A stretch of DNA of 64,000 nucleotides from Macrostomum lignano (GCA_002269645.1 NIVC01002373.1:75674-139673); one strand, 5' to 3'; numbered from the stretch's first letter, positions 43,401 through 64,000 are shown. The notes: generated by a model from the letters alone, not told the origin. Numbers and translations: made by a program.

Positions 43401-45989
43401 TAGTGCATAATCATAGCATATAATGTGGTTTCTAGTGCACATAGTGCTTAACCTTTTTTGACAAGTTTATTGTAAAATATATGGGCTAATTGTTTGTTTA
43501 TCTTATTTGCATTTATTAGGTATTTAATTTCTTTGTATATTCTCAAAATTGGACAACTATTTAGAATCAAATTGAATTAACCAAATATTCAGCTTGAATT
43601 AGAACTGAGAAGTTGGCAATCTGAAGATTTAAAAGTTGCTTTAATATAGGCAAAGATTTGGAGCAAATCAAGAGTTAAGTATTTGTATTATGGCTTACAA
43701 GTATAAATAAAGGGAAGGAATTGGGGATATATTAATTAGGAGATTAAGGGCTGAGAAGTTTGTATTTGAAGAATTGAGAGTTTTAAGGATTGTGGAATTG
43801 TGGCTCATAAATGAAAAATGGAATTTAGGATAGGATAACATGTGGAATGTCTTGAAGAAAGGCAGGGGTGCTTAAGCAGTTTTGAGCACATTGTGCTTAG
43901 ATTAAGTAGTGAGGCTTTTGGAGGCTTTAAGGCTTTAAGAGCCCTTGAGGCTTTAGGAGAAGTGGAGCATTAGGAATCAAGTTTATAGAACTTGGATTTA
44001 GGGGTATTAATTCCCACAAATTTGGAGGGATTTAGTTGGAATTTTTTCTGGGTGAATTTCATTGGACAAGAAGTAAAGATGCAAGCCTTTTGGTTGAGGG
44101 CTGCTAAAGGTAATGTGGCTGAATATTAAATGCCATGTGTTTCTAGCAGTGAGTATACATGTAGCTAGACACCCTATTGGAATAAAAGTTGAAAACCTGC
44201 AGATGCGCGCTTTAGAGTAGAGTCAAATTATTTTACCTTGCTTTAGCATTATTAGAGATGTTCCATTGCAATTGACGAAATTGTCCATTTCAATCTGTCG
44301 AAATCAAAATTCGATAACTTTCCGAAATTGAAATTGAACTTGAAATTTTCCAAAATCAAAATTCAGAAAAACAAAGTTTAATATGACTAACACTTACTTT
44401 TTTACGTTTTGATTTACTGCTTATGCAAAACAAAATACATGTATATGTAGCAGAAATTACTCGCTGTCTATTTTTAGCCACTTGACACTTTCGAAATTTT
44501 GACTTCCAATTTTTTTTAAAATTAAAATTTGCTCTTAAAAATTTCGAATTTTGGAAAATTGAAATTGAAATTTTGGAACATCGCTAAGTATTATAAATGA
44601 CAAGTGTATAGGCTCCTTCTACAGAGGTATTAGGACCCCTTCCATGTATATTATTTGCTTGAGCAGCAGCCAGCAAGGAAGGGCACCGTGCGCGCGCACT
44701 GCGCTTTAGAAAAATTTCAAATGTGTGCCGGACGCTGTCTGCAGTTTTACAACTTTTTCCTATAGGGGCTAGACATTCCACACATGTTTAATCATTGTAA
44801 TTCATGGTTTTACCAAAGTGCTCACCTGTGTGGCAGTTTTTTTGAGAAAATGGCAGCAAAAAAGCAACTTGCAACAAATGTTGGAACTTTTTGTCTTTAT
44901 GAATAAAGATTTTTATCATTGTTCCTTTAAGTATATTCTACTTATAAATGGAAAAATGAAAGTCAGTCCATATTTATAATTGCTTTGATAGCCATTTATA
45001 TAGAATGAATTCATTTAACTATCAATTAGCACTACTGGCAAGTGATTAATGAGTAGTGAGGTGGGCATATTATTGACAGAAATATTTGTATTTGGTATTT
45101 TTCAGTATTCAAATTGGTTCTGTCAGATATTTGAATCTGACATGGAATCAGTTCAAAAATTTTATATGACATGGGATACTTAAAACAAAGAAACAAAATA
45201 AGGATATAGCTATTGTTTGATTGCCTTTCAATAGCTTTCTTTGCTTCATAGAAAAAATCCAATTATTAATTTCTTTTATTAAAGATACTAAAGTACAATG
45301 TGTGTTCCTATCTCTGTCATATATTTTGGAAGTCTGACAAACAGACAATTTGCTATCCATCTGTTTCTACTAACTGCAAAAAACTATGAAGCTTTGCTTG
45401 TCTCGACATTAAGGAATGAAAAATGTGTTGAAAAAGTTGAAAATCAATACTTTACCTTAAAGCCTGTACTTTTTGCCAGAAGTAAACGCTGTAGTGGCTT
45501 TGTTAAAATTCAAATCTGTTTGTAAATGTCAATCCACTGGAGATAAGTGCATTTACTATACTTGTAAAATCATCTTTATGACATGTAGTTGATCCTACCT
45601 TTTCTAATACAAGTATAACTCATTTGTTAAATGGAGTTACAATTTTATTTTTATTGTTTTTGTATGTGGAGAATTCTTTTACTCAAAAGTACTTAGCAGT
45701 GAGGGGACTGAAGCCTTTGCCTGCACTTTCAACTCCTTAGGCTGCTCAGAACAATGCAAAGCGCAAGCTGTCTGCAGCCTCAGCGGCCACCGAATCCCCC
45801 GCGCCAAAGAAGTTCAGGCCAGAGGCTCCTAAAGGAACCGCAATTAGGAAGAAACTGTCCAAAACTGATGAGGCGGCGGCGGGCCCAGCTTCCGTAGCCG
45901 CTCGCGCCGGAAATTTGGAATTCGAATCGGCGCCAGCGGAGCAGCGGGAGAAGCGGCAGCAGCTGCAGACTCAGCAGCGACATCAGTAG
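40484..45989 (+). CDS. Putative host Lys-rich gene: exons 40484-40654 and 45741-~45984/45989 around a transposon-filled intron
   Basis: A phase-0 AAG|GTAGGT donor and a phase-0 CCTTAG| acceptor give ..KSKEKPEK|AAQNNAKRKLS..APKKFRP.. open up to the Polinton boundary. No recognisable domain. Confidence 0.4.
41046..41492. mobile_element. Non-autonomous DNA transposon, Mutator-like (9-bp TSD)
   Basis: ~35-bp TIRs GGCAGTTGTTATTTGTC.../...GACAAATAACAACTGTC; TSD TAACCAAAA at 41037-41045 and 41493-41501. Confidence 0.8.
41540..43148 (-). pseudogene. Degenerate mariner transposase, interrupted by a MITE
   Basis: Fragments in mariner order: MELTNNNFYAM, EALGIGLAVVTNILHNKLG, NETWVYQYNLETK (cf. DETWVYQYDPETK), LASYNFFLFPLMK (cf. 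LAPxDFFLFPxLK). Many stops and frameshifts. Confidence 0.75.
42525..43116. mobile_element. ~590-bp composite MITE (copy 1) with nested hAT-like MITE at 42726-43036
   Basis: TIRs CCCTATWGGAA..; 8-bp TSD ATGGCATA (42517-42524 and 43117-43124); inner TIR TAGAGATGTTCCGA. Confidence 0.85.
44172..44767. mobile_element. Same composite MITE family (copy 2, opposite orientation), nested hAT-like MITE at 44253-44586
   Basis: Reverse-complement homolog of copy 1 with its own 8-bp TSD GCTAGACA (44164-44171 and 44768-44775); inner TSD AGCATTAT/AGTATTAT. Confidence 0.85.
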
Positions 45990-46551
45990 TATACGTTTTT
46001 TTGACACAAAGCCGATTTCCTTATGGCGAAATACATAGTAAGTACAGGCCCAAAAAAATGGCAGAGTCCGAAATTTCATGTGCACGCAGTCTGAAATTCC
46101 GTGTGCACGCAGTCTGAAATTCCAAGTGCACGCTAAATATCTTTTACGCAACGTGATTATTCAGACGAATTGCATATCCACCTGTCCAAAATACAAGTAA
46201 CCAATTCTAACAATGGTGACACAAACACACTTCAAAGGATTCCATTCAAGACAAATTTACTCCAAAGCTATTCACACATTTCAAGTGTTATTGAAATATT
46301 GAAAACTTGCGAATATTATCACCCTTTTGAAGAAAGATAGTAAGTGATCTATTCTTGAGTGCCTATAGAATTTTTGCACCAACTTGAGCAGATGGTTTAC
46401 AGATACTATGTCAACAACCACGTCAACATGCTTCTTCTTTACTATATATATATATATATATATACGAACACACTGACACAGAAAATATTCAATAACTCAA
46501 ACCAAGTATACATTATACTACTTGTTCAACTATACGTACATCTTAAGAGAA

Positions 46552-48460: not shown

Positions 48461-49014
48461 TCAATTAGCAACTAGAGTTGCGTCCGAATCTATGGTTGAT
48501 TCCTCTAGCCTACTCAAGCCATGCTGAGTGCTTGCAACTTCTGCTTGATTTAATCCATATGGCGTCGATGTAACTATTTTAGCTATTCGACGAGGAGACT
48601 GCCAGTTGTCATTGTCAATTGTGCCCGAGGAAGAACCACAATTGGTAATAGGTGCTTTATTAGGAGTTACAGCTGACACACTTGTCAATGCCGTCTCTTC
48701 CATCATTTTAGTACCACCAGTAGCAGGTGAACTAAAAGTAATTGAAAGACAGTTAACTTTTAATTAATAATATTCTTTTTACAGTGTATCAAAGCCAAGA
48801 CCAGAAAAATAGCTTACATGCTCTTCTTCCAATATCGCAATCGAAATGCGACAACAACAACGCACATGACAGCAATGACAGCTACAATAATAACCTGAAC
48901 CAGACCAATTCTTTCGGTTTGGCTCACTAATTTGTCGATATTGCTCACTAGCTTACTAATAGATTCCGCATTTCCCTGAACTAAAATTACAACTTTATTA
49001 GTTTGGGGTACCAT
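48461..49014 (-). CDS. Spliced single-pass membrane protein (exons 49014-48818 and 48731-48461; a further 5' exon is possible)
   Basis: TM segment IGLVQVIIVAVIAVMCVVVVAF followed by basic RLRYWKK. An 86-bp GTAAGC..TTTTAG intron joins the two ORF-track ORFs in frame. Confidence 0.6.
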
Positions 49015-49334
49015 TTTCTTCTAAACTAAATAAAAATATGCAAGACAAACAAAAGAAATTCTCTAAAATAAAAGGCACACCTATAACAATAATCCAGCTC
49101 TAGACTCTAAACTATGAATCAACGTAAAGAAAATCTCCGTTTCAAAAATAAATTTTTTATTATATAAATATAACAAAAAATCGTAAACTAATACTTTGTA
49201 ACTAATTAGAAATATTAAGTTTGCCAACTGTTAAACTTAAATACTTGAGCAAAATATAGGTATGGATGTAGGTACGATTAGCTACATTAATTTGTAAAAA
49301 TTATCTTTCTTAAGCATGCGGAAAATACGTTTCT

Positions 49335-50065
49335 TTAGCCATGGTCTGGCTTTTGCCTCATGATTTAGCCGTATGCTCCGACTTTTGCCTCAACAGTATG
49401 ATTTAGTCGTATGGTCCGACTTTTATCCCAACAGTATGATTTAGCTGTGGTCCAGCTTTTACCTCAACAGTTTTTTAGCCGTGGTCCGGCTTTTTTTGCA
49501 ACAGTATTATTTAGCTGTGGTCTAGCTTAAAACTGAATCAACAGTGATTTAGTTATAGTCCAGGCTTAACTACCTCAACGATGATTTAGCTATAGTCCAG
49601 GCTTAACTGTCTCAACAGTAATTTTAGCTGTAGTCCAGACTTAACTGCCTCAACAGTGATTTTAGCTGTGGTCCAGGCAACTGTCTCAACAGGGATTTAG
49701 CTGTAGTCCGATTAGCTTAACTGTCCAGTTATTTAGCTGTGAGCCAAGCAGCAGCACCCGTCTCAACAGTGAGAATTAGCTATGGTCAGCTTTACCTCAA
49801 CTGTGATTTGGCTGCTGTGGTCTAGCATAACTGACTCAACAGTAATTTTAGCTGTAGTCGTCCAGCTTAACCACCCGTCCAGTTTTATAACCATGGTCCA
49901 GCTTAACCACCGTCTCAACGAACAGCGATTTAGTCGTGGTCCAGCTTAACCGTCTCAACGTACAGTGATTTAGCCATGGGTCTAGTAGCAATTAACCGTA
50001 TCAATAGTGATTTAGCCGTGGTCCAGCTTAACTGTCTCAACACAGTAATTTAGCTTAGTCCAAAC
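49335..50065. repeat. Degenerate ~37-bp tandem array between divergent viral genes
   Basis: Roughly 19 imperfect copies of ATTTAGCTGTGGTCCAGCTTAACTGTCTCAACAGTG. Confidence 0.9.
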
Positions 50066-50678
50066 AGCATTTGTGTGTCAACTGCACTGACTGCATGCGG
50101 TTATAGCAGCGGCAGTCATTATAGTCCCAACAAGCTGCGCGTCGCAGCATGATAGTGTAACTCTATATAGCTTCTGCTCAATATAGGACTGCAAAAGCTG
50201 AGTTGCAACTATACCTTTTTCTGTTTGAAAAGTAACACTCTATATATAGGTTACTCAAGCAATCTCTTGTCATCGTGCGAGCTAAAAAATTCCAACATGC
50301 AAGCAAAACTTTCAATAAATTAATTTCATAGCACCGCGTGCAGCTTATTTTTACTCTAAAATCCAAGATTGCTAATTTTTCAAGTCGCAAAATATTTTAA
50401 TTACATTCTACTTGAGAACAAAACCAATCTAATGAAGCAACAACCAGCAGTCTTCTTATTAAACGCTTGCCATCGTGTTACTCTTGCAAATTTATAACTA
50501 GTGTGCCTAAGATTCATTAATTTTATTGTATAAAATATCAACCTGCATTTGCGTAAAATTAGACCTAATTGTGCAACCCACAATAGAAACTTATGCCACC
50601 TTTGGCACGCAACATGCCTTAATCAGCACGCAACAATTAAATTTGTTTACTAGTTCACAAACAGCATGCAATGCTTGC

Positions 50679-50686
50679 TATAAATA
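50679..50686 (+). promoter_or_regulatory. Canonical TATA box (TATAAATA) upstream of the SSB-like gene
   Basis: Located 86 bp before the ATG at 50765. Confidence 0.4.
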
Positions 50687-50764: not shown

Positions 50765-51991
50765 ATGGCAGCTTGCATCAAGACGGAGTCAATTGTACGC
50801 TCCGACTCGAGTCCGATTTTCTACGTTGGAGAGCAGTCTACAACCACGACTGGTTCGTCCTGCCAGTTTCGATCTATTGCGTGGAAACCATCAATCGAGT
50901 GTACAAAATGGTACCCAATTATATTGCAAACCAAGGCTCCAATGGAGCTTTTTCGTGGAATCGCAGAAAGGCCAGAGCTCGATCATCCGTCTTGCAGACA
51001 CGACTCTCGCGACGCAGTAAGTGTCCAATTTCATCCAGACAGCTGCGATAAGGAACTCTTCCACTCTCTCCGGTGAGCACCATATTTAATTTATACAATT
51101 AATTTTAAAAACTTTTAAAAATTTAAAAAACAAATATTCATAATTTATATAATGTTTTGCAGTCAAGTCGAAAAAGGTCTATCGGGCAAGTTGAACGAGA
51201 TTCAAGATGCTCGACCCTTGGCACGACTAACAAAACCAGCTCATCAGCATGCTAACGACGTCCTCGAGTTTGTGCCTCAACAATGGCTGGCTATAAAGCC
51301 TGCTTACCCTTGTGCCACAATCAGGATCAGCAACGATCATCCACACGGGAAGGAGGTGTCCATTTCCGATTTCAAAGGTGTCAGCGGTACCTACCAAATG
51401 ACAGTGCAAGCAACGAGCTTGTATTGTCCAAAAGGCAGCCTCGTCTGGCGCATTACATTCGCTGTGCGCTCTCTAACGCTCATAGAATCTTCCGACAACA
51501 TGTTGCAGCGCCTTGACATGTTCAAGGGAGTGCTTGCACACCTACCTGCGACCAAGCCAGCAATTAGAAGCAGGAGTCCGTCCCCAACGTCTACCCATGA
51601 CCAAGAAGAAGCAGATGAACAAAGCCGGCAGAATTCAAGCCAGGTGACGCCTGCCAAGTCACCTGCAAAGCGTCGGTCTACCACCACCGTATCGAAGAAG
51701 TCGACTCCATCGAATGCAGCGCCAGCATCTATTGAACCGGTGGCTAAAAAGCAAGTTCGCAAACGCAGCGGTGCAAAACAGCAAAACAATTCTGCCGAAG
51801 CTGGTGCAGATGGCACAGACTGGGTGAAGGCACCACCAGCAAAGATCTTGGTGAGTACACCTGCCTCTGGAACCCGGGTAGCGTCCAAGGAGACAGCATT
51901 TTTAAAGCATGCTGCTGCTGCTGCTGCGGACGCTACTACAGCTAGCGTGTATTCATCGGACGATTCGTACAGCAGCTCTGATGATGAGTAA
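50765..51991 (+). CDS. Spliced gene (50765-51072 and 51163-51991, ~378 aa), putative OB-fold ssDNA-binding protein with acidic tail
   Basis: A 90-bp AT-rich CG|GTGAGC..TTGCAG| intron joins two ORFs in frame. IILQTKAPMELFRGI..AVSVQF..VQATSLY...WRITF resembles T7 gp2.5/NCLDV-type SSBs, and the protein ends SSDDSYSSSDDE. The function is inferred. Confidence 0.55.
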
Positions 51992-52199
51992 CAAAATTTT
52001 TGACTAATTTTATCCAAGTTTTAACTAACTTAATTCCACTATATTTATCAAATTTTTGGCTAGGGAAATATTATTTTTAGGGAAAAGCTCAAAACATTTT
52101 TGCTACTCCTTGTACGCCAACCAGGTTTTGTTACTTAATATTAGAATTTACAATAGTATAGTCTTGTTAATTTTTTTTATTATTTACTTTCCGTTTTAG

Positions 52200-52757
52200 C
52201 GACTTGTCCTATTAATAGTTACTGCGAGTCTGAAGCTGCGTCCGTTTGAAAAATTTGATTTAAAGCAGACCAAACAGAAGCTACAGACCAGAAACCGGTT
52301 TTGCAAACTATTCCTAAGCCGACCAACAATGCTAAAGACAATTTATTCAAACGCAAAAATCCAACTTTATCCAGCAGGAAAACTAACTATATATGGCTGT
52401 AAATCAAATTCTCAGATAGTTTCAGTTTTACGATTTATCAACGATACTATTAATTGTGTAGATTTTGATTCAGTAAAAATTCAGAGCAGTACCTATGTCG
52501 GCTTTATTGGTCATCTTTGGCCAAAATTCGGTTTCTCTAGTCTAAAAAGATATGCAGGCTACTATTCGAATTATCTGGTTGGATACGATGCAGAAAATTT
52601 CCCACAAGCAGTTTCTGTTAGATCAAAATCAAAACCAAGACTTTTTTGTAACATATTTTTTTCGAAAAAGTTTGTTATTATGGGCGTTCAAAACACTCAT
52701 GAATTGAATAATATTCTTAACCATGTCAAGGATTTTTTAATCTCTGTTAATAACTAA
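52200..52757 (+). CDS. Divergent TATA-binding-protein-like domain (3' exon; the frame is open 43 codons upstream of the annotated ATG)
   Basis: Colinear with both TBP repeats: IVTASLKL..KFDLKQ (NIVSTVNL.CKLDLKT), IQLYPAGKLTIYGCKS (LIFSSGKMVCTGAKS), FDSVKIQS (FLDFKIQN), YDAENFP (YEPELFP), KPRLFCNIFFSKKFVIMG (KPRIVLLIFVSGKVVLTG). Confidence 0.75.
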   Translation, partial: RLVLLIVTASLKLRPFEKFDLKQTKQKLQTRNRFCKLFLSRPTMLKTIYSNAKIQLYPAGKLTIYGCKSNSQIVSVLRFINDTINCVDFDSVKIQSSTYVGFIGHLWPKFGFSSLKRYAGYYSNYLVGYDAENFPQAVSVRSKSKPRLFCNIFFSKKFVIMGVQNTHELNNILNHVKDFLISVNN

Positions 52758-52976: not shown

Positions 52977-53693
52977 GTGCACACAATGCCGCGTGCACAA
53001 TGTCAAATCTGCAGAAAAAAGTTCAGCAATCAAGCTGAGCTGCATGCTCACTCGCATGGTGATTGTTTTTCGCCGGAACGATTACTGGTCGGATCACTGC
53101 AAAACCTGATCGAAAACCCACCAGATGGATGGTCCATCACTTTGCGCGAGTCAGCTCATCGTGGTCGGGTAAATTTTGTCGAATTTACTCCCACTCTTGA
53201 ACAACAAGACAGCAGCTCTGGCGAGTTACTTCCTGGCGAGTTGATTGCGTCTTTAAGAGGACTAATATTTAAAATATTGGAAAAAATTGGCTCACCTAGT
53301 TTATTAATAAGAGTCTGCTTTCACTTGAAAGTGACACTTTTTCGACCGAAAGCAGCAGCAGACGACAACGATGGCTCGAGCAGCGAAGAAATCATCTCGG
53401 TCTATTTTAATACCAACATTGCGACAATATCATTTGATGAGACGATTGCAAACAGTGACATGCTGTTATCTCCCGAGGCCTACAATGACTGGTTCGCACG
53501 CGTTATTAATCAGCTATTAACAAAAATAGACAATTTTCAATCTCGAGGCAGTAATTGGCAATATAGAGCAATCGAGCAGCTAGACTTGATGCTCTGCATT
53601 TATCGCAAAAGCCATGCAACCACACTGTTAACAAATACGTCCCACGATGGTGTGGGAGCGGGCGGCGGGGGTGGTGGTGGTGGTGGTGGTGGT

Positions 53694-53731
<38 letters not shown>

Positions 53732-56700
53732 GCGCGGCGAGTCCGGTCCAGTCCGGTCCGGTCCAGTCCGGTCCGGTCCGATTAAACAGCGAGCGTTTAA
53801 AGTTCCACTCTCAATCGGGCGCAAAGCTGGAGCAGTACTGCTTCTAAAGCCGCACAGAGCAAATCAGTACGACTGTTTTCGCTACTCAATATTGGCGAGT
53901 ATATTTCATCCTTGTGTGCAAGATGCGAAAAGGAAAGACAGCTATGTGCAATGGATGAGAGAATTTAATTTTGGTCGACAAGCTAATGGACCAGCTCGCC
54001 ATTCAAGTAGATCGTACAAAAAATTCTGCCGACGCAATCCGAGAGTTAGTCTACGAGTATTTGTGTGGGATCACGACACCAAGACGAGCACATTATTTTA
54101 CTCGCACAGAAGCAAATATGATGGCGATCGTTATTTTGCGAGCTGTCTGTTTGTGCCGCGGTATGACGATTTTGAATTTGGTCATTATTTACCAATTCGC
54201 AATTTGAACCGGTTATTGAGCAAGCGAGGTAAACAGCGACGATATTGTCCGGAGTGCACGGCTTCGTTTCCTTGCTCAACTTCGTGGGACTATATTCTCA
54301 AGGAGCATTGCTGTGAAGGTGGTAACGTGTCATCATCATCAGCTTCTAATATTGAATGGAGTTCGGATTTTGTGCCTCAAATCCGCGAGATTCGCCATCG
54401 ACCACAAGAAGTAATGCCGAAACCAGAAGACGCAATTTTAAAATTTAAATCACACGAGGCAAAACTGCCTTCGTTGTATGTCTTGTACGCAGACATGGAA
54501 TGTCTATGTGCACCTGCAAATAATGAAGCAAATGTAAAAAAGACTTGTAATTCGAAGCCGCTTGAAGTCCACGTACCAATTTGTTTGGCCTATCGTCTGA
54601 TAACTTGCCAAGGTTTGCAACTGACACCAAAACTAGCTGCAGCAGTTGGAATGGGCGACAAAAAACCTTGTGGAGTAATTTACTCGCAAAAAGATGGTGA
54701 GAATTGTGTTCGACTGTTTTTACGCAAACTTCAGACCATTGCCAGCGAGATTTGTCTGCATGCTCAGACTGAGACGTTTACTCCCTTGCTACGTGAATAT
54801 CTCAATATTAAATCCAACAAGAAGCTTCAGCAGACTTGCCAACTATGCAAGCGAGTATTTGACAAGACTGAAAAAACTGTGCTGGACCATTGTCACTTGA
54901 CTGGTTTGCCTCGTGGCATAGTTTGCGTCTCGTGTAATCGAAAGTTAAGTTTAAAACGATACCGATTGATTGTCTACTTTCACAATTTGGCTGCCTACGA
55001 TGGTAAATTTCTTGTGCGAGAGATTTACAACGTGTTTTCTGGAAACAGTGTTCAACTAAGCGTGCTACCAGAGACTCGTGAACGCTTCAAGACGTTTTCG
55101 CTAAAGTTTACATTGCCAAGTAATCAACACAAGAATGGCTTTGTGCGGTTTGAGATTTGTTTCAAGGATACTTTTGCCTATTTATCGACAAGTTTGGCTA
55201 CTCTAGCCGATCGACTGCTTCCCGAGCAACTAGTGCATACAAAAGAGTTGTTAAAAACGTATCCAAAGTTGGAGCTGGCAACTCTACGACAAAAGGGAAT
55301 CTATCCCTACTCTTTTTTGGACTGCGAGGAAAAATTGGACAATGTGACACAGTTACCGCCGAAGGAGAATTTTTTCAACAAGCTTACAATGTCGCACTGC
55401 ACGGAAGAAGATTATGGTCGAGCTTGTGTAGCTTGGAATCAGTTCGAGTGTCAAAATCTTCGAGATTATACAACAGCCTATTTGTTGCTTGATGTACTGC
55501 TGCTATGCGACGTCTTTGAAAATTTTCGTCAGACTGCGCTGCGTGAATATGGTCTCGATCCGACTCACTTTTTGGGTGCACCGATGTTTAGCATGGTAGC
55601 CTGCCTGTTGCGGGTAGACGAGCCAATAAAATTGTTTACCGACGCATCTATGTATGCCGAAGTTGAGTCCTCCATTCGAGGCGGTTTCAGTTTTGGAACG
55701 CGACATGTAACGACGGCCAATAACCCGAGTGTAGCAGAGTACAGAAGCGAGTTTGATCGACTTGATCCGGACTTTGAAAGCTTGCGAAAAAATGCACCAT
55801 ATGGAACTTATCTAGCATACTTGGACGCTAATTCGCTCTACTCAAGCTGCATGATTCAACCTTTACCAGTTGGCGATTTTTTATGGCTATCACGCGATGA
55901 AATTGGGAACATTCCAACCGATAGTGCGAGTGCAGACTATTTGGAAAGCCCAAGTGTTAAAAGTCAACTATTGGATTGGTTAGACAAGTTTTGTAACGAC
56001 GAACAAGGAGCAATGTTCACTGTGGATCTATATTATCCTCGCTTCTTGCATGACTCGACAGCAGATCTTCCGCTTGCAATTGGTCACGAATTAGTTGGCG
56101 AAGACCGACTTAGTGAACAGATGAAACTGGACTGGTTTTGCCTTCAAAGAGAACTCAATCCAGATCGTTTTGAAAACGCAACAAGCTATGGTGATGTGAA
56201 AGCTTTCAGCAGCTCGACGCGAAAATTGATTGGGTCTGTGCTTCACAAAAAGAAGTATGTTGTGCATCATCGAGCTCTTCGATTGTATCTAGAATTGGGA
56301 ATGCGCGTAACGCGTGTTTACCGCGTAATTCGATTTACAGAACGACCAATTTTGCGATACTATATTGAACACAATATTGAGCGGCGTAAAGTAGCAAAAA
56401 CTGAATTCGAACGCGACTTTTTCAAGTTGCTAAATAATGCTCTTTTCGGAAAGTTTCTGCAACGAGTTCGCGATCGACTCAATTTCCGCATGTGTTCAGA
56501 AGCTGAAAAATTGGAGAAATATGTTTCTCGAGAAGATTTTCTTGACGTAGTAATTTATAATGAAAGTCTGGCAGGAGTTAGCCTCGCTCCACGTCGTGTT
56601 GCGCTAGACAAACCGATTATAATCGGTGCTGCAATCTTAGACATTGCAAAGACTCTTGTATACGACTTTTATTACAATCATGTTCAGATTCATCATTCAC

Positions 56701-57224
56701 TAGCAAGTGCTCGGGTACTCGCAGGAGATACTGATAGTCTTATGCTGGCTCTAGTTATGCGTAAACCGGACGAGACTCCTTACGATACCTTGTTCAAAGA
56801 TTTGGCAGAAGAAGGTTTGCTAGACACGAGTAACTATTCACCATCGCATGCTCTGTACTCGACAAAGCACAAGGGTCGACTTTTGGCGTGGAAAGACGAG
56901 TTTAAAGGTTGTATACCACTGGAACTGGTATTTTTGCGACCAAAAAATTACTCCTTCGTGTATGCCAATGGAACTATAGATCAAGTCTCGCGCTGCAAAG
57001 GTGTCTGCAAGACTGTAGCACAAAGTTTAAAGCATCAAGACTATTTGAGAGTTTTGCACAAGCGACAACTTGTGTTTTCGCGCATGCAGTCGATTCGTTC
57101 TAGAAAACAGAAAGTTTTTTTAATGCAACAAAGAAAACTTGCACTAAGTTTTTTCGACACGAAGCGATCTTGGACAGACTGCATCGATTCGCTGCCCTTT
57201 GGTCACTGGCGCTTGACCAATTAA
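52977..57224 (+). CDS. pPolB: Protein-primed family B DNA polymerase with N-terminal Zn finger/terminal-protein region and endonuclease VII-like insert
   Basis: Exo I YADMEC, Exo II FHNLAAYDG, Exo III YLLLDV, Pol A YLDANSLY, Pol B KLLNNALFGK, Pol C GDTDS. CxxC..DHCHLTGLPRG..C..CN is an EndoVII-like motif. Confidence 0.97.
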
Positions 57225-57513: not shown

Positions 57514-57999
57514 ATGAATGCCGAGCAGCAGCAACAACAACAACAGCAGCAGCAGTACCAACTTTTAGTGGAACGCCTGTACGAATCGGCAACAATTCCG
57601 GCCCGAAAAACTGTCGGCTCGATTGGTTACGATCTTTGCGCAGGCGTTGATGGCACTATTCCAGCCTACGAGTCCCGCAGTGTACGAACCGGACTTAAAG
57701 TCCGGTTACCGGCTGGTACGTATGGCAGGATTGCGGCCCGATCGAGCATGGCTCTGCGCGGTATCTTTGTTGGCGGTGGCGTAATCGACCCCGACTATAC
57801 AGGGGAAATCTGTATAGTTTTATTCAACTACAGCTCGGAGGATTTTGATTACTACGCCGGGCTAAGTATCGCGCAACTCGTTCTTGAGCAGGCTGTGCTT
57901 GCTTCAGTCTATGCGATTGAAGCCGATAACTCCATTCGGAAGATTGAGCCGCCGACCAAGCGGCGCGGTTTTGGCGGCTTTGGAAGCACTGGTCAATAA
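57514..57999 (+). CDS. dut: Trimeric dUTPase
   Basis: All five motifs: GYDL, GRIAARSS, GVIDPDYTGEI, IAQLV, RGFGGFGSTG. Confidence 0.95.
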   Translation: MNAEQQQQQQQQQQYQLLVERLYESATIPARKTVGSIGYDLCAGVDGTIPAYESRSVRTGLKVRLPAGTYGRIAARSSMALRGIFVGGGVIDPDYTGEICIVLFNYSSEDFDYYAGLSIAQLVLEQAVLASVYAIEADNSIRKIEPPTKRRGFGGFGSTGQ

Positions 58000-58064: not shown

Positions 58065-58073
58065 TATAAGCAA
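58065..58073 (+). promoter_or_regulatory. TATAAGCAA candidate late-promoter motif (also at 59243, 60286, 61504 and 62886)
   Basis: Each copy lies 50-61 bp upstream of an ATG. Confidence 0.55.
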
Positions 58074-58124
58074 TTTTAAAATTTATGCCAAAAAAAAAAT
58101 ATATATATATATATATGTTGTAAA

Positions 58125-58544
58125 ATGTCTCCAGCGAAAGATCGAGGTTTTAAAAAGAAAAAGAAGAGCAGTCGTATAAAGAAGAAATCTATTAGAAAGA
58201 TTAATAAAAAGCAACAAGGTTTTGGTGTCGTAAATTGGTTAATTAATCATTTACCATTTGAAGCGCATTTACCCGGCGGATATCAGTTTTGTGGTCCAGG
58301 TACGCAACTGCAAGCTAGGCTAGCAAAAGGACAACGAGGAATCAATCGACTTGACAATTTGTGCATGCTTCACGACGTGGCCTATGATAAAAATTCGGAC
58401 GTGCAAGAGAGATTAAAAGCTGATAAGCTATTAGAATCTGGTGCACGAGAAATTGCCCACGATCCGTCTACTGGTTGGAAAGAAAAACTAGCTGCGAAGT
58501 TGGTTACCAAGGTTATGCAAGTTAAGCAACGCTTTGGTGCTTGA
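58125..58544 (+). CDS. Parvovirus VP1u-type phospholipase A2 domain protein (adintovirus PLA2-like)
   Basis: Ca-binding loop YQFCGPG and catalytic DNLCMLHDVAY; basic N-terminus. Confidence 0.9.
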   Translation: MSPAKDRGFKKKKKSSRIKKKSIRKINKKQQGFGVVNWLINHLPFEAHLPGGYQFCGPGTQLQARLAKGQRGINRLDNLCMLHDVAYDKNSDVQERLKADKLLESGAREIAHDPSTGWKEKLAAKLVTKVMQVKQRFGA

Positions 58545-58546
58545 AA

Positions 58547-59236
58547 ATGCAGCAGCCATACAATATGCAACTAGCTCACGATTCTACATTTATTATTGCT
58601 GGACCTTCAAACTCGGGTAAAACTGAATGGACGTTGCGTTTGTTGACTGAACGAAAAGAATTATTTGATGAAAAACCGCGTCGTCTTGTTTGGTGTCATG
58701 GATCAAGTTTGAAACCAGACGATCAACAACGAATTAGAACATGCTGGCAAAAGAGCGGTCTTGACCCTATTGTTTTTGTACCCGAATTCATACCACAGAT
58801 GATTAATCGTTTTTTACCACACGATTTGGTTGTTGTTGACGACTTGCAAAGCGAGATTGCTAAGTTGCCAGAATTTACTAGTATGTTTACAAAGCATGCG
58901 CATCATATCCCTTTGACTTGTCTGTATCTTTGTCAAGGTCTTTTTAACAAGTCTGATCCCGAAGCACGCATGCGAAGTTTATCAGCTAGTTATATTTGTC
59001 TAACTCGTAGTGTGCGCGATCGAACCACAGTTGAGCATCTCGGTCGACAAATGTATCCGCGTAATAGTAGGTTTCTAGTGAATGTGTATGAAGACGCAAC
59101 AAATAACAAACCTTTTTCATATTTATTCATTGACCTGCGACAAATGACACCCGATTTTTTACGATTGAGAACAGGAATCTTTCCTGGCGATGAGCAAGTT
59201 GTCTATACTCGTGAATGTGATGCAAAGTTTGTGTAA
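58547..59236 (+). CDS. A32/FtsK-like DNA packaging ATPase
   Basis: Walker A GPSNSGKT, Walker B LVVVDDL, FTKHAHH, RSLSASY, YLFIDL. Confidence 0.95.
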   Translation: MQQPYNMQLAHDSTFIIAGPSNSGKTEWTLRLLTERKELFDEKPRRLVWCHGSSLKPDDQQRIRTCWQKSGLDPIVFVPEFIPQMINRFLPHDLVVVDDLQSEIAKLPEFTSMFTKHAHHIPLTCLYLCQGLFNKSDPEARMRSLSASYICLTRSVRDRTTVEHLGRQMYPRNSRFLVNVYEDATNNKPFSYLFIDLRQMTPDFLRLRTGIFPGDEQVVYTRECDAKFV

Positions 59237-59293
59237 TATTATTATAAGCAAATTATAAACTGTTGTCAATATTAGTTTGTGTTTTATTTCAAA

Positions 59294-60283
59294 ATGAGTT
59301 TTTACGTTTTTTTGCCGTCAAACGATATCAGTTACGAAACCAACTCGCCTAATGAATTTCGAGTACGACTAACTGAACCAATAAATTTATTGAACGGATT
59401 CTTCGAGGTTGCACTAGTTGAATTACTTTGCCATGGAGCAATTACGACCCCAAATGCTCATCGTGAGCGTCGATTTGAAGTTCCATATTTTGCGGACATT
59501 GACTCAATAATACGATTAAAGAAAAACTATTGGGGTCGCGTTTGGGCAGAGGCAGACTTGGATGCTTACGTTTCCTGGCAACCGTCTGGTACAAATGAAA
59601 AATTTGCCTGGCTTTTACGAAATTCAGGCGAAAAAACTATTGGATTAGAACTACCGGTTACATTTATGGACGCTTTCAAATTTGACTCTTGGAAGAAACT
59701 TTCTGGACTTGTCTCGGAAAAATTATCAAAACCTACCGCTGGTAGTGTACAACCACCGGATGGATCATACTTGGATGTGGTAAAAAGTCTCGACAATACT
59801 CTAGCGCTAGTACCTGAGAACTATTATGTTTTTTATTGTGTTCTATCGCCTGGTGAAGCTATACGACTTGTTTCGCATGGAGACTATCTTCAAAAAACGG
59901 AAGGAGAAGTGTACATCAAATTACACCAATATTGGTTGAGAAATCGTATTTGGCGCATTAACAAAACCTACTTGGATGCTGTGCTACCTTCTCCGATGCC
60001 TAGTAAAACGGTTTACATGTACTGTTACACAGACATAATCGAGTATCAAGCAGTGGGAAGTACATCAGTACCGTTGCTTCGAGTTGTGGAACTCCAACAA
60101 AAGAAAAATGGAGAACTTGTACGCGATAGCAGTGCATTGCAAACACCCTACTACTTGAAAACAAATCGACAACAAATTCACGAGATTTCGATTCGACTAT
60201 CGGACCAGCGCGGAAAACCATTTAATTTTCATCCGGGAGCACACGTTGTTGTCGTACTGCATTTTAGACACAGGTCAGACTAA
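59294..60283 (+). CDS. Minor capsid (penton-like) protein
   Basis: Polinton penton termini FYVFLPSN..NSPNEFRVRL..FEVALVEL and YCYTDIIEYQ.VG..PLLRVV..EISIRLSDQRGK..VVLHFR. Confidence 0.9.
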   Translation: MSFYVFLPSNDISYETNSPNEFRVRLTEPINLLNGFFEVALVELLCHGAITTPNAHRERRFEVPYFADIDSIIRLKKNYWGRVWAEADLDAYVSWQPSGTNEKFAWLLRNSGEKTIGLELPVTFMDAFKFDSWKKLSGLVSEKLSKPTAGSVQPPDGSYLDVVKSLDNTLALVPENYYVFYCVLSPGEAIRLVSHGDYLQKTEGEVYIKLHQYWLRNRIWRINKTYLDAVLPSPMPSKTVYMYCYTDIIEYQAVGSTSVPLLRVVELQQKKNGELVRDSSALQTPYYLKTNRQQIHEISIRLSDQRGKPFNFHPGAHVVVVLHFRHRSD

Positions 60284-60339
60284 TTTATAAGCAAAGATTA
60301 ATGTGTAAAAAGAAAATTTTGTGAATTTTTTTTGTAAGA

Positions 60340-60768
60340 ATGAACGAACTAACAGAAAAAGGAAAACGAAATGCTCGCTCATTGTGTCAGTGTGCTTTTT
60401 TACTACAAATTGTTTATCGGCTAAAGCATCCAAAGCAGAGAAAAAGTTTTTTACAAACACTTTCAGAGTCGGAGATACGATGTCTAGTAGACTTTCTGTT
60501 TAATATTATTAGTGGACGTATTAAAATTAGTAACTGTAACAAAAGACGACTTGAGAAGCATCGCAGATATATACGTCAGCTTTTGGAACAGAAGACTCCA
60601 ATTACTGCAAAAAGGAAAATACTTGTCCAACACGGAGGATTTTTACCTTTTTTGGCTCCAATTATTGCCGCTCTACCTGCTATAAGCACTGCGCTTGGGA
60701 TAACGTCTGGAGTAGTTGGTACCGCCGCGGGAGCAGCAAATTTAATACGATCAATTCAACGAAAGTAG
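60340..60768 (+). CDS. Polinton basic core-type protein with adenovirus pX(mu)-like C-terminus
   Basis: KRKILVQHGGFLPFLAPIIAAL resembles adenovirus pX GGILPLLIPLIAAA; basic central region. Confidence 0.75.
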   Translation: MNELTEKGKRNARSLCQCAFLLQIVYRLKHPKQRKSFLQTLSESEIRCLVDFLFNIISGRIKISNCNKRRLEKHRRYIRQLLEQKTPITAKRKILVQHGGFLPFLAPIIAALPAISTALGITSGVVGTAAGAANLIRSIQRK

Positions 60769-60776
60769 TAGGAATA

Positions 60777-61466
60777 ATGCGAGCCAAGGAGAGTAGTAGT
60801 TTTCAACGAATGTATCTAGTACCTGAATCTGTGTATCAATCTACATGTCAAGGAGCAGAACAAGGTTCGTCACCAGCTGCTGAGGTACCTCGAAAAACTG
60901 AAGTTTTAGACGCACCGCAAGATGGTCTGGCAAAAAATATGGTGGAAATGAGAGAACAAATGGATAACTTGGACAAGGAAATGGAGAAGGAGCCAAATTA
61001 CACAGCTCAATTGAAACGAAGCAGATTGGAAGACAAACTTTTAAAATTACGCAAAGTCTATCGCACTGGAGACGAGGACAATCTGCCACTTGTTCGCAAA
61101 GGGACTAATGTAAGAAGCTCATATGCCAGAGAATCAAGGGAAATTCCTAAAGTTTTTTTACCACGTTTCGAAGCTCTCGCTCAAAACCTATTTTCGGACA
61201 TGGACAAGAATGCAGAACCAATGCTGGCTAATTTGACTGATGGCGAGATACAAGATCTCATGGAATATGTTGTTCGAGACAGACCGCTTAAGCGACACGA
61301 GACTCAACCACCTAGTGGACTAAAAACATTTTTAGACTTTCTTCGAAAACGTGGAATCGCAGCAAACCAAATCGGGCGTCATGTACGAAACGAGCTAATG
61401 CATGCTCCAAAAACTGTTGCAAAGGAGGATCTTAGTCTGTTTGAAAATTATCAAACACTGGCTTAA
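60777..61466 (+). CDS. Polinton hypothetical protein
   Basis: Intact 229-aa ORF tightly packed in the cluster; N-terminal RMYLVP motif. Confidence 0.7.
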   Translation: MRAKESSSFQRMYLVPESVYQSTCQGAEQGSSPAAEVPRKTEVLDAPQDGLAKNMVEMREQMDNLDKEMEKEPNYTAQLKRSRLEDKLLKLRKVYRTGDEDNLPLVRKGTNVRSSYARESREIPKVFLPRFEALAQNLFSDMDKNAEPMLANLTDGEIQDLMEYVVRDRPLKRHETQPPSGLKTFLDFLRKRGIAANQIGRHVRNELMHAPKTVAKEDLSLFENYQTLA

Positions 61467-61564
61467 TTTGTTTTAAATGTTTTAACAAAATTGATTCGAG
61501 CACTATAAGCTTTTTAAAAAGGTTAATTTTGTTTATGAAAATATATAGTTTAATAAGACAAACC

Positions 61565-61753
61565 ATGTCATCTATCTGCCAAAAACTTTTGATTCGTCTC
61601 TGTGAGTTTTTTTGCTTAAAATCCGAATGTGTGCCGTTTCTGGGAGAGGAGCACAACGAGGATACTGACGGAAATTCGATCGAGGCTTCGTTCTTTTGTT
61701 GCAATTGGCATACGAATAGCATCAATCTAACTCATGATGAAGCGAGTGCGTAA
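61565..61753 (+). CDS. Small Cys-containing ORF (62 aa)
   Basis: ATG is 61 bp after a TATAAGC motif; overlaps the integrase start. Confidence 0.3.
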   Translation: MSSICQKLLIRLCEFFCLKSECVPFLGEEHNEDTDGNSIEASFFCCNWHTNSINLTHDEASA

Positions 61754-62894
61754 GGAAATTGAAGAATTTTTGACGGATGCTTTTTTTAACTTGAACAAAC
61801 CTACTTCATTTAGTGGTAACAAGACTATACTTGTTCGTGAAGTGCGTAAAAAGTTTCCACAGATTACGAACAAAGTTGCGAAGCGCGAAGTTGATAATTG
61901 GGTGCGATCAACAAATGAGCATCATTTATTTCGAAAAACACGACGAAACTTTCCAACTCCAAAAATTAGTGTACCACCAGTTGCAAAGTTTCAGTTTCAA
62001 ATCGATTTGGCAGATTTACCTCGATACAAGACGGAAAATCGAGGTTATCGTTACATACTTGTTCTGATTGACTGTTTTACTAGAGTTGTACGACTAAGAC
62101 CATTGCGTACAAAGAAGCCTTCAGAAGTTAGTCAAGTATTACTAGAGATTTTTCGAAGTGGTTTTAAGCCTGTTTATTTACAAGGTGATGCTGGTATGGA
62201 GTTTCTCGGAAGAGCTACACGTCAAATGCTGAAACAGGAAGGAGTTCGATTTTTTGTTAGCCAAAGCAATTACAAGGCAAGCATGGCTGAACGATTTATC
62301 CGCTCGCTAAAGGAGCGTCTATTACGATACTTTCGAGCAAAAAATTTACCTCGATGGTTTGATATTTTGCCACAATTGGAAGATAATTTCAACTCTAGTC
62401 CTCATCGATCCTTGAGTGGAGAAACACCAAAACGTGTAGAGACAGACCCACATTTACAAGGAATTTTGTGGGACAAAATGTTTGCGAAGTCGTACACTAA
62501 AAAGAATGAGAATAAATTTAAAGTTGGTGATTGGGTTAGAATTACACGACGTCGAGGAACATTTGAAAAAGGATACACTACGAGTTGGAGTAATTCAAAA
62601 TATCGCATTCACCGTGTACACTTGACAGAACCGCCAATGTACGAATTAGCGGACCCTGAAGATGGATTTGAAGTGCTGAAAGGAAGGTTTAACCAAGCGG
62701 AACTAATGTTGGTAAACGAGACAGATGAAACACCTAATGAAATTGAAAAAGTTATTGAAACTGATCGATCGAAAAATGGAAGTCGTCTGTATCTAGTAAA
62801 ATGGAAAGGTATGCCAATCTCAAGAAGTCAGTGGTTAAACGAAAAGGATCTTGACGCAAAGACTGCTAAACTATTTTCTAAAGTGTATAAGTAA
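61734..62894 (+). CDS. INT: Retroviral-like DDE integrase with C-terminal chromodomain
   Basis: FQIDLAD, LQGDAGMEF, KASMAERFIRSLK; chromodomain EIEKVI..YLVKWKG...SQWL. Confidence 0.95.
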   Translation: MMKRVRKEIEEFLTDAFFNLNKPTSFSGNKTILVREVRKKFPQITNKVAKREVDNWVRSTNEHHLFRKTRRNFPTPKISVPPVAKFQFQIDLADLPRYKTENRGYRYILVLIDCFTRVVRLRPLRTKKPSEVSQVLLEIFRSGFKPVYLQGDAGMEFLGRATRQMLKQEGVRFFVSQSNYKASMAERFIRSLKERLLRYFRAKNLPRWFDILPQLEDNFNSSPHRSLSGETPKRVETDPHLQGILWDKMFAKSYTKKNENKFKVGDWVRITRRRGTFEKGYTTSWSNSKYRIHRVHLTEPPMYELADPEDGFEVLKGRFNQAELMLVNETDETPNEIEKVIETDRSKNGSRLYLVKWKGMPISRSQWLNEKDLDAKTAKLFSKVYK

Positions 62895-62935
62895 CACATG
62901 AATTGGGATTGCATGACGATGAGAAGACTGTTGAA

Positions 62936-63394
62936 ATGGATCCTATTTTTGCTTTTTATTCTGGTCCGAATAGATCTGCTGAAGGTGGAGGTGGATCTGG
63001 CATTCCTGTTTACGAAGGTTACGGTTTTTTGTCAAATTTGGCGGACAGATTGGTGTATCCTGTACTACGCAACGCAAAGAAAGATTTCTTGGATCGTGGT
63101 CTGGAGTATTTGAAAAGTGCGACAGCAAAAATTGGTATGGGTCGGAAGCGTCACTTGGACACAGAATCGAGCGAAGAGATGTTTAATACACCTGCAGTCT
63201 CGAGACCAAAGCGAAGGAAAAGAACCAGTGGAGTGGCTATAAGCTTAGGAAAGAAGAAACGACAAAAGAAACGACGAACAAGACAGTGTGGAAAAGGACG
63301 CGTGAACAAACGAAAACGCAAGAGGGTAGGTGGTAAAAAAAAACGTCGAACTGCTACTGCAAGCAAGAAACTTTTTAGTCTGTTTGAAAAGTAG
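62936..63394 (+). CDS. Basic virion protein with GxG motif and amphipathic helix
   Basis: YEGYG-FLSNLADRLVYPVLRNAKK followed by an Arg/Lys-rich tail. Confidence 0.7.
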   Translation: MDPIFAFYSGPNRSAEGGGGSGIPVYEGYGFLSNLADRLVYPVLRNAKKDFLDRGLEYLKSATAKIGMGRKRHLDTESSEEMFNTPAVSRPKRRKRTSGVAISLGKKKRQKKRRTRQCGKGRVNKRKRKRVGGKKKRRTATASKKLFSLFEK

Positions 63395-63395
63395 C

Positions 63396-64000
63396 ATGAA
63401 TCATTTGCTTGGACCTGATATTGCTGCTCTTAAAAGTGAATTGTCGCTATTTGATCAAAGTCCTGTCAGTTTAGTGTTTTGGATAATCGGTATACTAACA
63501 TTCAACCGCAACATGGTATTACAAAAGGATCACCTATCGAATTTGAGAGGTTGTGCCTGCAGGCGATTTGTATTTGGATCTACAAGAAACTGTGCTCACG
63601 GTATGCTTCAGCGTTAGTGATAGTGAAGGTGAACCTATAGATGCAACAAAAAATTTTGTTTGTTTGAATAATTTGGCTATTGGAACATTGTTTGAAGACG
63701 TTCAATTTACTATTGGCGATACTGTAGTTTGAAGGTGGTAGTTTTATGTATCCATACAAGGCTATGCTTCTTACATTACTGGAATACGGACATACAGCTC
63801 AGAAGGCTGGTTTACTACCGTGGGATTTTACAAGGATACAGCTGGTAAAATGAATGCAACAAGTGAAAACGATGGACGAACAAAGAGCAGCAGGCGCTTA
63901 TTGCTAACAATAGGCGGTGCACTGTATCGGGGCCGTTATTCTTGGATTTGTTTCGTCAGCCTCGGTATCTACTATCAAAGACACCACTGCGGATCAAGCT
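63396..64000 (+). pseudogene. Major capsid protein (double jelly-roll) 5' part with multiple frameshifts
   Basis: KSELSLF, SPIEF, YLDLQET, YPYKAML..LLEY, FYKDTAGKM and DLFRQPRYLL..LRIK occur in order but in different frames. Confidence 0.85.

Follow-up and report, generated by a model that had tools for sequence, protein, structure and literature searches.

A conserved, clade-specific TATA-like box precedes most virion-gene units of a Macrostomum lignano Polinton clade that encodes a TBP-like protein

How animal Polintons without an RNA polymerase order the expression of their genes is a question for which we found no description in the literature searched; the main text of Starrett et al. 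2021 (PMC8502044) never uses the word 'promoter', and the parts consulted describe neither a motif nor a TBP function. The question is raised by a 64,000-nt stretch of Macrostomum lignano DNA (GCA_002269645.1 NIVC01002373.1:75674-139673; the window), in which a short TATA-like word recurs before the late genes of an element that also encodes a TBP-like protein. The element is a Polinton/Maverick (adintovirus), as judged by its protein-primed PolB and retroviral-type integrase (Pfam DNA_pol_B_2, rve) and by terminal inverted repeats starting with AG: three further copies (L069, L089 and L090) have right ends that match the left repeat (45985..46088, beginning AGTAGT), read in inverted orientation, at 96–97%. 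With the adintoviruses and animal Polintons covered in the same parts of PMC8502044 it shares pPolB, integrase and PLA2 and, as putative members of the set, the ATPase, the protease and the capsid proteins. The match is weak for the packaging ATPase (E 0.046) and also for the protease, taken from copy L069 (E 0.033), and the MCP and penton are named by position and conservation, family searches having given no match. A Pfam scan of the element's ORFs returned no RNA polymerase gene. All features described below lie on the + strand.

The early block opens with a canonical TATA box, TATAAATA (50679..50686), 86 nt 5' of the first early ORF, and a TATAWAW word lies upstream of this gene in all six clade-1 families. 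The preliminary description had assigned a canonical box to this gene, which holds, and had called the gene SSB-like, a label for which we found neither a structure nor a family match (the exon-2 part gave a low-confidence model, pLDDT 48). The putative gene comprises exon 1 (50765..51072) and exon 2 (51163..51991), with a GT..AG joint (51071>51162) present in RNA contigs from two of four runs; its read-through form ends in an acidic tail. The TBP-like coding exon follows (52200..52757; 185-aa open frame; Pfam TBP, E 2.1e-7), and then the protein-primed family B DNA polymerase (52986..57224; DNA_pol_B_2, E 3.6e-20), which has no motif upstream. The dUTPase (57514..57999) has no TATAAG copy in the window's family, and TATAAATAG lies 257 nt upstream of it.

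The TATAAG(C/T) motif is real. A recount confirmed the seven copies listed in the preliminary description (58065, 59243, 60286, 60681, 61504, 62886 and 63238), and the spacings it gave for five of them (60, 51, 54, 61 and 50 nt) are all correct. Counted on both strands of the whole window, the 7-mer shows no enrichment, with 12 copies for an expectation of 12.6. Within 58–64 kb, the enrichment over shuffled background, whose absence was to count against the proposal, is present: the + strand carries seven copies against a mean of 0.72, a count reached by none of 2000 dinucleotide shuffles, and by 4 of 2000 when the interval is extended to 50–64 kb. The − strand of 57.2–64 kb and the early block (50.3–57.5 kb) contain no copy. 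TATAAGC is the top non-microsatellite 7-mer of the late block (p ~6e-7, or ~0.01 corrected for 16,384 7-mers), and five of the seven copies lie 45–65 nt 5' of one of nine late ATGs (P ~1e-6, for an interval picked post hoc). We use 'late' as an assignment inferred from gene function.

Along the late block, a first TATAAGCAA (58065..58073) stands 60 nt 5' of the PLA2-like ORF (58125..58544; Phospholip_A2_4, E 2.8e-9) and is retained in five of five lineages, in one as TATATGC. The packaging ATPase (58547..59236; weak Pox_A32 match) lacks a motif of its own at ~50 nt. Two further TATAAGCAA copies precede the penton-like ORF, named so in the preliminary description and without a family match (box 59243..59251, 51 nt 5'; ORF 59294..60283), and the pX-like core protein (box 60286..60294, 54 nt 5'; ORF 60340..60768; Adeno_PX, E 2.3e-6); both are found in 5/5 lineages, the former in intergenic sequence or varied frames. 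TATAAGCTT (61504..61512; 5/5 lineages, one TATATGC) lies 230 nt 5' of the integrase with chromodomain (61734..62894; rve, Chromo) and 61 nt 5' of a conserved small Cys-containing ORF of 62 aa (61565..61753), for which six of six families have a homologous small ORF in the same position and which has no Pfam or PHROG match. TATAAGTAA (62886..62894) overlies the last integrase codons (Y-K-stop), 50 nt 5' of a basic Lys/Arg-rich core-like protein (62936..63394), in four of five lineages, J being the exception. The last copy, again TATAAGCTT (63238..63246), sits in the basic-protein frame 158 nt 5' of the MCP start (5' part of the gene, 63396..64000; frameshifted in the window copy).

Having defined the motif in family A, we searched for it out of sample in the other clade-1 families, between which alignable DNA is ~64–79% identical and consists mostly of coding stretches. 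Every one of the six clade-1 blocks carries 5–8 copies of TATAWGY on its + strand, compared with shuffle means of 0.7–1.6, and these counts were reached by at most 1 of 300 shuffles. Across five divergent lineages of the clade, TATA(A/T)G(C/T) is present at 29 of 30 gene-by-lineage orthologous sites. Its distance to the ATG is 41–68 nt at 23 of the 24 non-MCP sites (median 51), and the G at position 6 and the upstream TA are fixed (29/29 each), with C or T at position 7. The canonical TATATAAG register is avoided: TA precedes the box at 0/29 sites and A at 1/29, against a flank A frequency of 0.33, orthologous sites not being independent. TATA(A/T)G(C/T)A is thus a conserved, clade-specific box before most virion-gene units of the clade.

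The two copies that had been added to the series as lying upstream of ORF229 and the MCP fared differently. The pre-MCP copy is conserved in 6/6 families, where its codons read xxT-ATA-AGC throughout, 124–165 nt 5' of the MCP, with a chance from codon use of ~1e-7. The TATAAGC at 60681..60687, inside the pX frame and 96 nt 5' of ORF229, is present in all four other copies of the same family and missing at the aligned codons of all four other lineages; since no other lineage keeps it, it is probably incidental and outside the box system. A TATAAGG within the MCP, 134–140 nt 5' of the protease, was rejected as a codon coincidence, synonymous changes breaking the word in two of five lineages. Relatives outside this genome were not recovered by MCP among viral contigs or by TBP alignment among metagenome contigs; protein searches outside the genome gave 0 relatives from a single sequence and one from an alignment, and a 50%-cluster protein library yielded about a dozen close relatives, which come without DNA context.

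The TBP-like exon encodes what AlphaFold2 models as a two-repeat saddle (pLDDT 95.8, pTM 0.82), for which Foldseek returns TBP matches (E ~2e-9, TM ~0.7), and its Pfam TBP match passes the cut-off. The genome retains some 28 intact TBP frames that are nearly identical, together with several divergent families. All six clade-1 TBPs have Gln55 and Asn151 in place of two normally hydrophobic DNA-facing leucines and retain Asp130/Glu132, Phe134, Pro135 and Phe153, so that their DNA face is predicted to be more polar. Taking the four intercalating Phe and the two base-contacting Asn of TBP to be placed as in yeast numbering, we find Phe134 and Phe153 kept, Tyr57 in place of a third Phe and no aromatic residue at 39–43 (register uncertain), while the Asn positions are Leu4 and Ser96, so both Asn are absent. 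Because both base-contacting Asn and one intercalating Phe are gone, the clade-1 protein could have lost DNA binding. Asp130 and Glu132, present in 6/6 proteins, form the acidic C-terminal stirrup that faces TFIIB in TBPs; here a TFIIB contact is predicted.

The TBP-like frame opens directly 3' of an AG acceptor conserved in six of six families, and its first ATG comes only at 52329. An internal phase-0 donor of the upstream early gene (51850|51851), Leu|GT(A/G)AG at a homologous K-x-L|V-S position, is likewise conserved in 6/6 families, its use being predicted. These signals predict that splicing joins the TBP to the upstream protein as a fusion; none of the four RNA contig sets contained a joint into the TBP exon. 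A spliced leader ending in AUG is able to provide an initiation codon, according to the excerpt of PMC9851317 consulted; we set aside such a leader as the start of the TBP frame because a conserved in-frame cis donor is present.

The same genome contains four Polinton clades, each with its own TBP-like gene and its own box. That of clade 1 is TATAWGY; the others, selected after inspection of the data, are TTAAGAA in clade 2 (6–9 copies in 5/5 blocks), TATAARA in clade 3 (five copies in 2/2 blocks) and TATAAATA in clade 4 (four copies in its one block), the last being canonical despite the TBP-like gene, which was found by profile search. Clade 2 was considered as a TBP-less control and rejected: tblastn with the window protein missed its TBP and a Pfam search found one. 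Among the four clades found, as scored candidates, none is TBP-less, and a sample of four is too small to test TBP/box covariation. In clade 2 the TBP gene itself lies 73–82 nt 3' of the clade's own box, and therefore priming by another route would be needed. As for host genes, the clade-1 box outside the canonical register is found in 0/17 H3 and 0/12 small-HSP upstream regions (10 opposite-strand or non-HSP ORF rows excluded from the count), and a TTTAAG-type word occurs in 4 of the 17 H3 regions. A genome search for TFIIB gave 15 matches on seven contigs, none of them a contig that is also listed for a Polinton TBP or ATPase.

We favour, with a probability of about 55%, the reading that the box is a core promoter for late genes, which the element's TBP recognises together with host Pol II, as in beta- and gammaherpesviruses. 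The link between box and TBP is favoured by the clade-specific boxes within one host and by the altered DNA face of the predicted protein. Since co-resident clades differ in both TBP-like protein and box, a private factor per element is likely, each element switching on its own late genes. In such a scheme, host TBP would start the early unit from the canonical TATA, and alternative splicing of that unit would fuse the upstream protein to the TBP core. The element TBP would then bind the variant box, favouring TATAAGCA over TATAAAAG, and recruit host TFIIB through the retained acidic stirrup, with transcription starting ~30 nt 3' of the box; an upstream-ATG test for a start at ~+30 (corrected, without MCP leaders) was not significant (p 0.11–0.72). 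Genes lacking a box (ATPase, ORF229, integrase, protease) would be expressed from the upstream unit. A fuller version, in which the co-resident clades hold private orthogonal late codes, each TBP reading only its own box (TATAWGY, TTAAGAA or TATAARA), and in which splicing fuses the clade-1 TBP to an early protein that possibly binds single strands, is one that we put forward tentatively, as less probable than not. Of the preliminary proposal of a late promoter perhaps read by the TBP-like protein, a conserved cis-element of the virion block, absent from the early block, stands, and the TBP link is favoured on the grounds given above; the comparison with the baculovirus TAAG core is not supported.

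The herpesvirus late system (KSHV ORF24, EBV BcRF1, HCMV UL87; TATT(WAA) box, host Pol II) uses a viral TBP mimic without an RNA polymerase of its own, and the Polinton likewise combines a TBP fold with no polymerase. In the sections of PMC12529657 and PMC6541308 consulted, herpesvirus late genes have a modified TATA and early genes a conventional one, the same split as in Polinton clade 1, and PMC12529657 likewise describes the DNA face of KSHV ORF24 as more polar than that of cellular TBP, as predicted for the Polinton TBP. The differences are as clear: the box is TATAWGY rather than TATT, and among the ORFs scanned none was recognised as a homologue of the five further herpesvirus activators. 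The TFIIB-binding acidic residues, absent from ORF24 in the same sections of PMC12529657, are retained in the Polinton TBP, and ORF24 keeps four Phe, whereas the Polinton TBP keeps two, with one Tyr and one lost. TBP dependence of late genes is proven in herpesviruses, whereas the Polinton is known from sequence and predicted structure. At most, the Polinton design resembles a herpesvirus-type system in how it works; it does not belong to that class. Mavirus/EMALE elements and polinton-like viruses, with helper giant-virus promoters, also have virion genes preceded by one shared motif, in a small integrating virus of the double-jelly-roll type, as far as the accounts drawn on here go; the Polinton motif differs in being TATA-like, ~50 nt upstream, clade-specific and accompanied by an element-encoded TBP. 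Mavirus/EMALE-type promoters have the motif TCTA.

The most serious competitor, plausible though less probable than the favoured reading, is that the box is a weak non-canonical TATA for host TBP/TFIID, late timing being due to amplification of the template or to other factors, with the TBP-like protein serving, for example, as a repressor or decoy. The box shares with the canonical Pol II TATA box (TATAWAWR) the TATA core, the W at position 5, which obeys TATA rules, the use of one strand and a fixed spacing to the gene start. Such words can also function: excerpts of PMC13732139 report expression from TATAAGA and TATAAGT comparable to minimal CMV in HeLa cells, those of PMC9872816 report that the CaMV 35S box tolerates a single A6G or A7C, and PDB entry titles list wild-type TBP bound to G(-26) and C(-25) variants. 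The canonical box of clade 4 and the several canonical DNA contacts missing from the viral protein point the same way. However, the box departs from the TATAWAWR consensus, and host TBP leaves unexplained its invariant G6, the avoided canonical register, the canonical TATA at early genes and the near-exclusive boxes of co-resident clades, among which TTAAGAA is not a TATA at all. Very unlikely, in our view, is a baculovirus-type (A/G/T)TAAG initiator for an unknown helper virus and its RNA polymerase, in the manner of the mavirus promoter and its giant virus. (A/T)TAAG is contained in the boxes of clades 1, 2 and 3, with ATAAG at 27/29 clade-1 sites, and the ATG distance is similar to that of baculovirus TAAG motifs, which lie within ~50 nt of the start codon in the part of PMC5490809 consulted. 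Yet TAAG, called invariant in the corresponding part of PMC13483298, gives way to TATATGC at 2/29 sites, and the upstream TA is the same at all 29. A further eight [AGT]TAAG words of the window's late block share no spacing, clade 4 has no TAAG box and no polymerase gene was seen among the element's ORFs. Nor have ATGs been purged as upstream AUGs: 24 sites hold 16 of them between +8 and +33, with 12.0 expected, and this speaks to some degree against a start site within the motif. A genome search for LEF-8 gave no match, nor did its positive control.

The strand specificity of the box, and its position no more than ~15 nt from the upstream stop at three sites (penton, pX and basic protein), would suit a signal in the RNA for the 3' end or termination of the preceding gene, one that a compact genome happens to place before the next gene. 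Where the intergenic gap is long, however, the box follows the downstream ATG, which weakens this account: in four lineages it lies 105–273 nt past the dUTPase stop and 42–68 nt 5' of PLA2, and in lineage F 193 nt past the ORF229 stop and 53 nt 5' of the small ORF. The pre-MCP copy, moreover, is within a coding frame, and we regard a 3'-end signal as quite unlikely. Chance or a by-product of codon conservation fits the copy at 60681 and the TATAAGG within the MCP, and could extend to the integrase-end copy over its conserved Y-K-stop. As a general account it is highly improbable, because the word returns out of sample at 29/30 sites, in intergenic sequence and in all three frames; judged by these alignments, it appears refuted for six copies of the window's seven, least firmly for the integrase-end copy.

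If the favoured reading of a late promoter served by the element's own TBP is true, the pairing of a self-encoded TBP and its matching box would constitute an early-to-late switch that operates without a helper virus, and would represent an independent origin of the herpesvirus strategy. If the TBP is in addition fused to a single-strand-binding protein, late activation would be tied directly to replicating genomes. The box can also help to find small genes that lack annotation, the 62-aa ORF being one example, and several natural TBP–box pairs in one host would offer a small testable set for rewiring the sequence specificity of TBP. For the family as a whole, a helper-free switch of this kind would support the status of animal Polintons as autonomous viruses.

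All seven TATAAG(C/T) copies reported in the preliminary description ahead of the presumed late genes lie at the positions claimed for them, all on the + strand, and the five motif-to-ATG spacings given there are correct. Over the whole window the 7-mer is not enriched (12 observed vs 12.6 expected). Between 58 and 64 kb, the proposed excess over shuffled background holds: seven copies occur vs 0.72 expected, 0/2000 shuffles reach that count, and no 7-mer other than microsatellite words ranks above TATAAGC. The early block (50.3–57.5 kb) contains no copies, ATPase, ORF229, integrase and protease have none ~50 nt upstream, and box presence at the dUTPase is mixed.

These genes belong to a Polinton/Maverick whose left terminal repeat starts at 45985. 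It carries genes for a TBP-like protein, pPolB, dUTPase, PLA2, ATPase, a pX-like protein and an integrase; its MCP gene has a frameshift in this copy. The M. lignano genome holds ~30 close copies and, besides these, several divergent families with a TBP identity of 40–47%. In most close copies TBP and ATPase are ~3 kb rather than 6.2 kb apart, and a contig joint jumps 3163 nt of PolB (window 53860–57024); these observations suggest a large non-autonomous deletion family that has retained TBP and the late boxes. In other clade-1 families, relatives of the window's own, TBP and PolB are separated by a deoxynucleoside kinase gene (L012 48–710, L014 312–749, L018 37–657, L020 2–508) that is absent from the window's family. 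In 6/6 families the integrase is preceded by a Cys-containing ORF of 62 aa (window 61565–61753) whose C-terminal 'CC' motif is conserved and for which there is no family match. The left arm contains two arrays of degenerate tandem repeats (49330–50070 and 46700–46920). Also within the element are two small minus-strand ORFs of 66 and 81 aa (48461–49014), one with a hydrophobic segment and both without a late box. Directly left of the Polinton lies a separate ~2.2-kb element (42525–44767) with degenerate inverted arms of ~550 nt.

Conservation was assessed in six clade-1 families, of which B and D are close and were treated as one lineage (lineages A, to which the window's copy belongs, B/D, C, F and J). 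Generalized to TATAWGY, the motif occurs 5–8 times per structural block on the + strand, vs 0.7–1.6 expected; no block has more than one − strand copy. It is present at 29/30 gene-by-lineage sites, in 5/5 lineages at PLA2, penton, pX, the small ORF and MCP and in 4/5 at the basic protein, with the cores TATAAGC (23), TATAAGT (4) and TATATGC (2). The box-to-ATG distance is 41–68 nt at 23 of the 24 non-MCP sites and 124–165 nt for MCP. Penton and pX copies lie in differing reading frames or between genes, depending on the family, and the MCP-proximal box sits on the same three codons in 6/6 families, so that it is the DNA that is constrained. Of two additional TATAAGC copies in the preliminary description, the MCP-proximal one is conserved in 6/6 families and the one at 60681 fails this test; a TATAAGG inside MCP was likewise ruled out as a member of the set by cross-family conservation. 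Family C has a tandem duplication upstream of PLA2 that holds four TATAAG copies (L026 6565–6745).

As had been proposed, the first early gene instead bears a canonical TATA box, here in 6/6 clade-1 families (TATAAATA, TATAAAAG twice, TATATAAG twice and TATAAAAT), and late sites avoid the canonical TATATAAG register (0/29), 'early' and 'late' being labels inferred from gene function only. Upstream of host H3 and small-HSP genes, any visible box is canonical; 0/29 such rows, which stem from duplicated genes and are not independent, show the late box outside the canonical register, and TTTAAG occurs in four H3 rows, also from duplicated, non-independent genes.

Three further Polinton clades (2–4) were identified in the same genome via their ATPases. 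All three carry a TBP-like gene and therefore provide no TBP-less control. For clade 2, unbiased word counts gave TTAAGAA, confirmed in three further blocks (6–7 copies vs 0.6–0.8) and located 34–60 nt before integrase, penton and ATPase, ~109 nt before MCP and 148 nt before the basic protein. Patterns chosen after inspection gave TATAARA as enriched in clade 3 and TATAAATA in clade 4. The boxes are nearly clade-exclusive: TATAWGY occurs once across eight non-clade-1 blocks, and TTAAGAA once in six clade-1 blocks and twice per clade-3 block. Because a single host TBP serves all four clades, the differing boxes point to an element-encoded reader (n = 4 lineages). Against a strict own-TBP model, the clade-2 TBP gene sits behind clade 2's own box and the clade-4 box is canonical. 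The TBP ORF of clades 2 and 3 shares its DNA with the 3' half of another ORF, 270–280 aa long and in a different frame (L043, oriented, 6203–7280; L041 6218–7310). In-frame stops in clade-2 ATPase matches (L043, oriented, 4459–5475) lie where the ATPase ends and a downstream pX-like ORF begins; in some copies the two form one continuous frame. These stops do not indicate recoding. Besides the canonical host TBP (C70), the genome has a second cellular TBP-family gene, TRF2/TLF-like (G000:C350:633851-634351).

The frame from 52200 is predicted to form a complete two-repeat saddle (pLDDT 95.8) whose fold matches solved TBPs. Since its first strand and helix are encoded 5' of the first ATG, the 142-aa ORF would be incomplete. 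In 6/6 clade-1 families there is a phase-0 acceptor ahead of the first strand, and the upstream gene, 5' of the TBP exon, has a phase-0 donor at a homologous K-x-L|V-S position (donor-type words in a control: 16 per 6952 codons). From this conserved pair, alternative splicing is predicted to fuse the upstream, putative SSB-like protein to the TBP core. Read-through past the donor, into the predicted intron (window 51851–52199), would instead give the upstream protein an acidic tail. Within the upstream gene, only the first intron is seen as a joint, in 2/4 contig sets whose RNA origin is a guess, and it is retained in genomic copies. On the predicted DNA face, clade-1 TBPs keep Phe134, Pro135, Phe153 and the acidic pair Asp130/Glu132, have Tyr57, Gln55 and Asn151 in 6/6, and have lost both Asn and one Phe; residue assignment and yeast numbering are those we take to apply. 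The TBP tree, which has long branches, places clade 1 with clade 4 and clade 2 with clade 3.

We consider the box real, and its tie to the element's TBP favoured but unproven. With a probability of about 0.55, host TBP would initiate the early unit, splicing of which would yield the TBP fusion; this would bind TATAWGYA and recruit host TFIIB and Pol II to the virion genes. No TFIIB-like gene was found on Polinton TBP/ATPase contigs. The main rival, a weak box read by host TBP, is the less likely explanation but deserves weight: one study describes TATAAGA and TATAAGT as functional in HeLa cells (PMC13732139), and another reports that plants tolerate single changes at box positions 6 or 7 (PMC9872816), the yeast consensus being TATAWAWR (PMC2396422). 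That one host TBP faces four different boxes speaks for the element-encoded reader.

Reading the motif as a 3'-end signal appears very unlikely, as some sites track the downstream ATG over long gaps. An initiator of the baculovirus type is likewise very unlikely; the preliminary description had linked the motif to the baculovirus TAAG core, and the TATATGC sites and the undepleted ATGs behind the motif speak against this link.

The own-TBP reading resembles the viral-TBP late system of beta- and gammaherpesviruses (PMC12529657, PMC6541308): the Polinton box and TBP would work alike without being a member of that system. In Starrett et al. a figure legend lists a TBP-like gene, and the main text does not discuss promoters; the terms TBP, TATA and promoter are absent from two recent Polinton papers, and our literature search, within the listings of non-subscription journals, did not turn up such a box for any animal Polinton. 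New here, in our assessment, are the out-of-sample conservation of the box, the clade-by-box pattern within one host and the predicted fusion. The Polinton box together with the element's own TBP would represent a new form of the known viral-TBP strategy.
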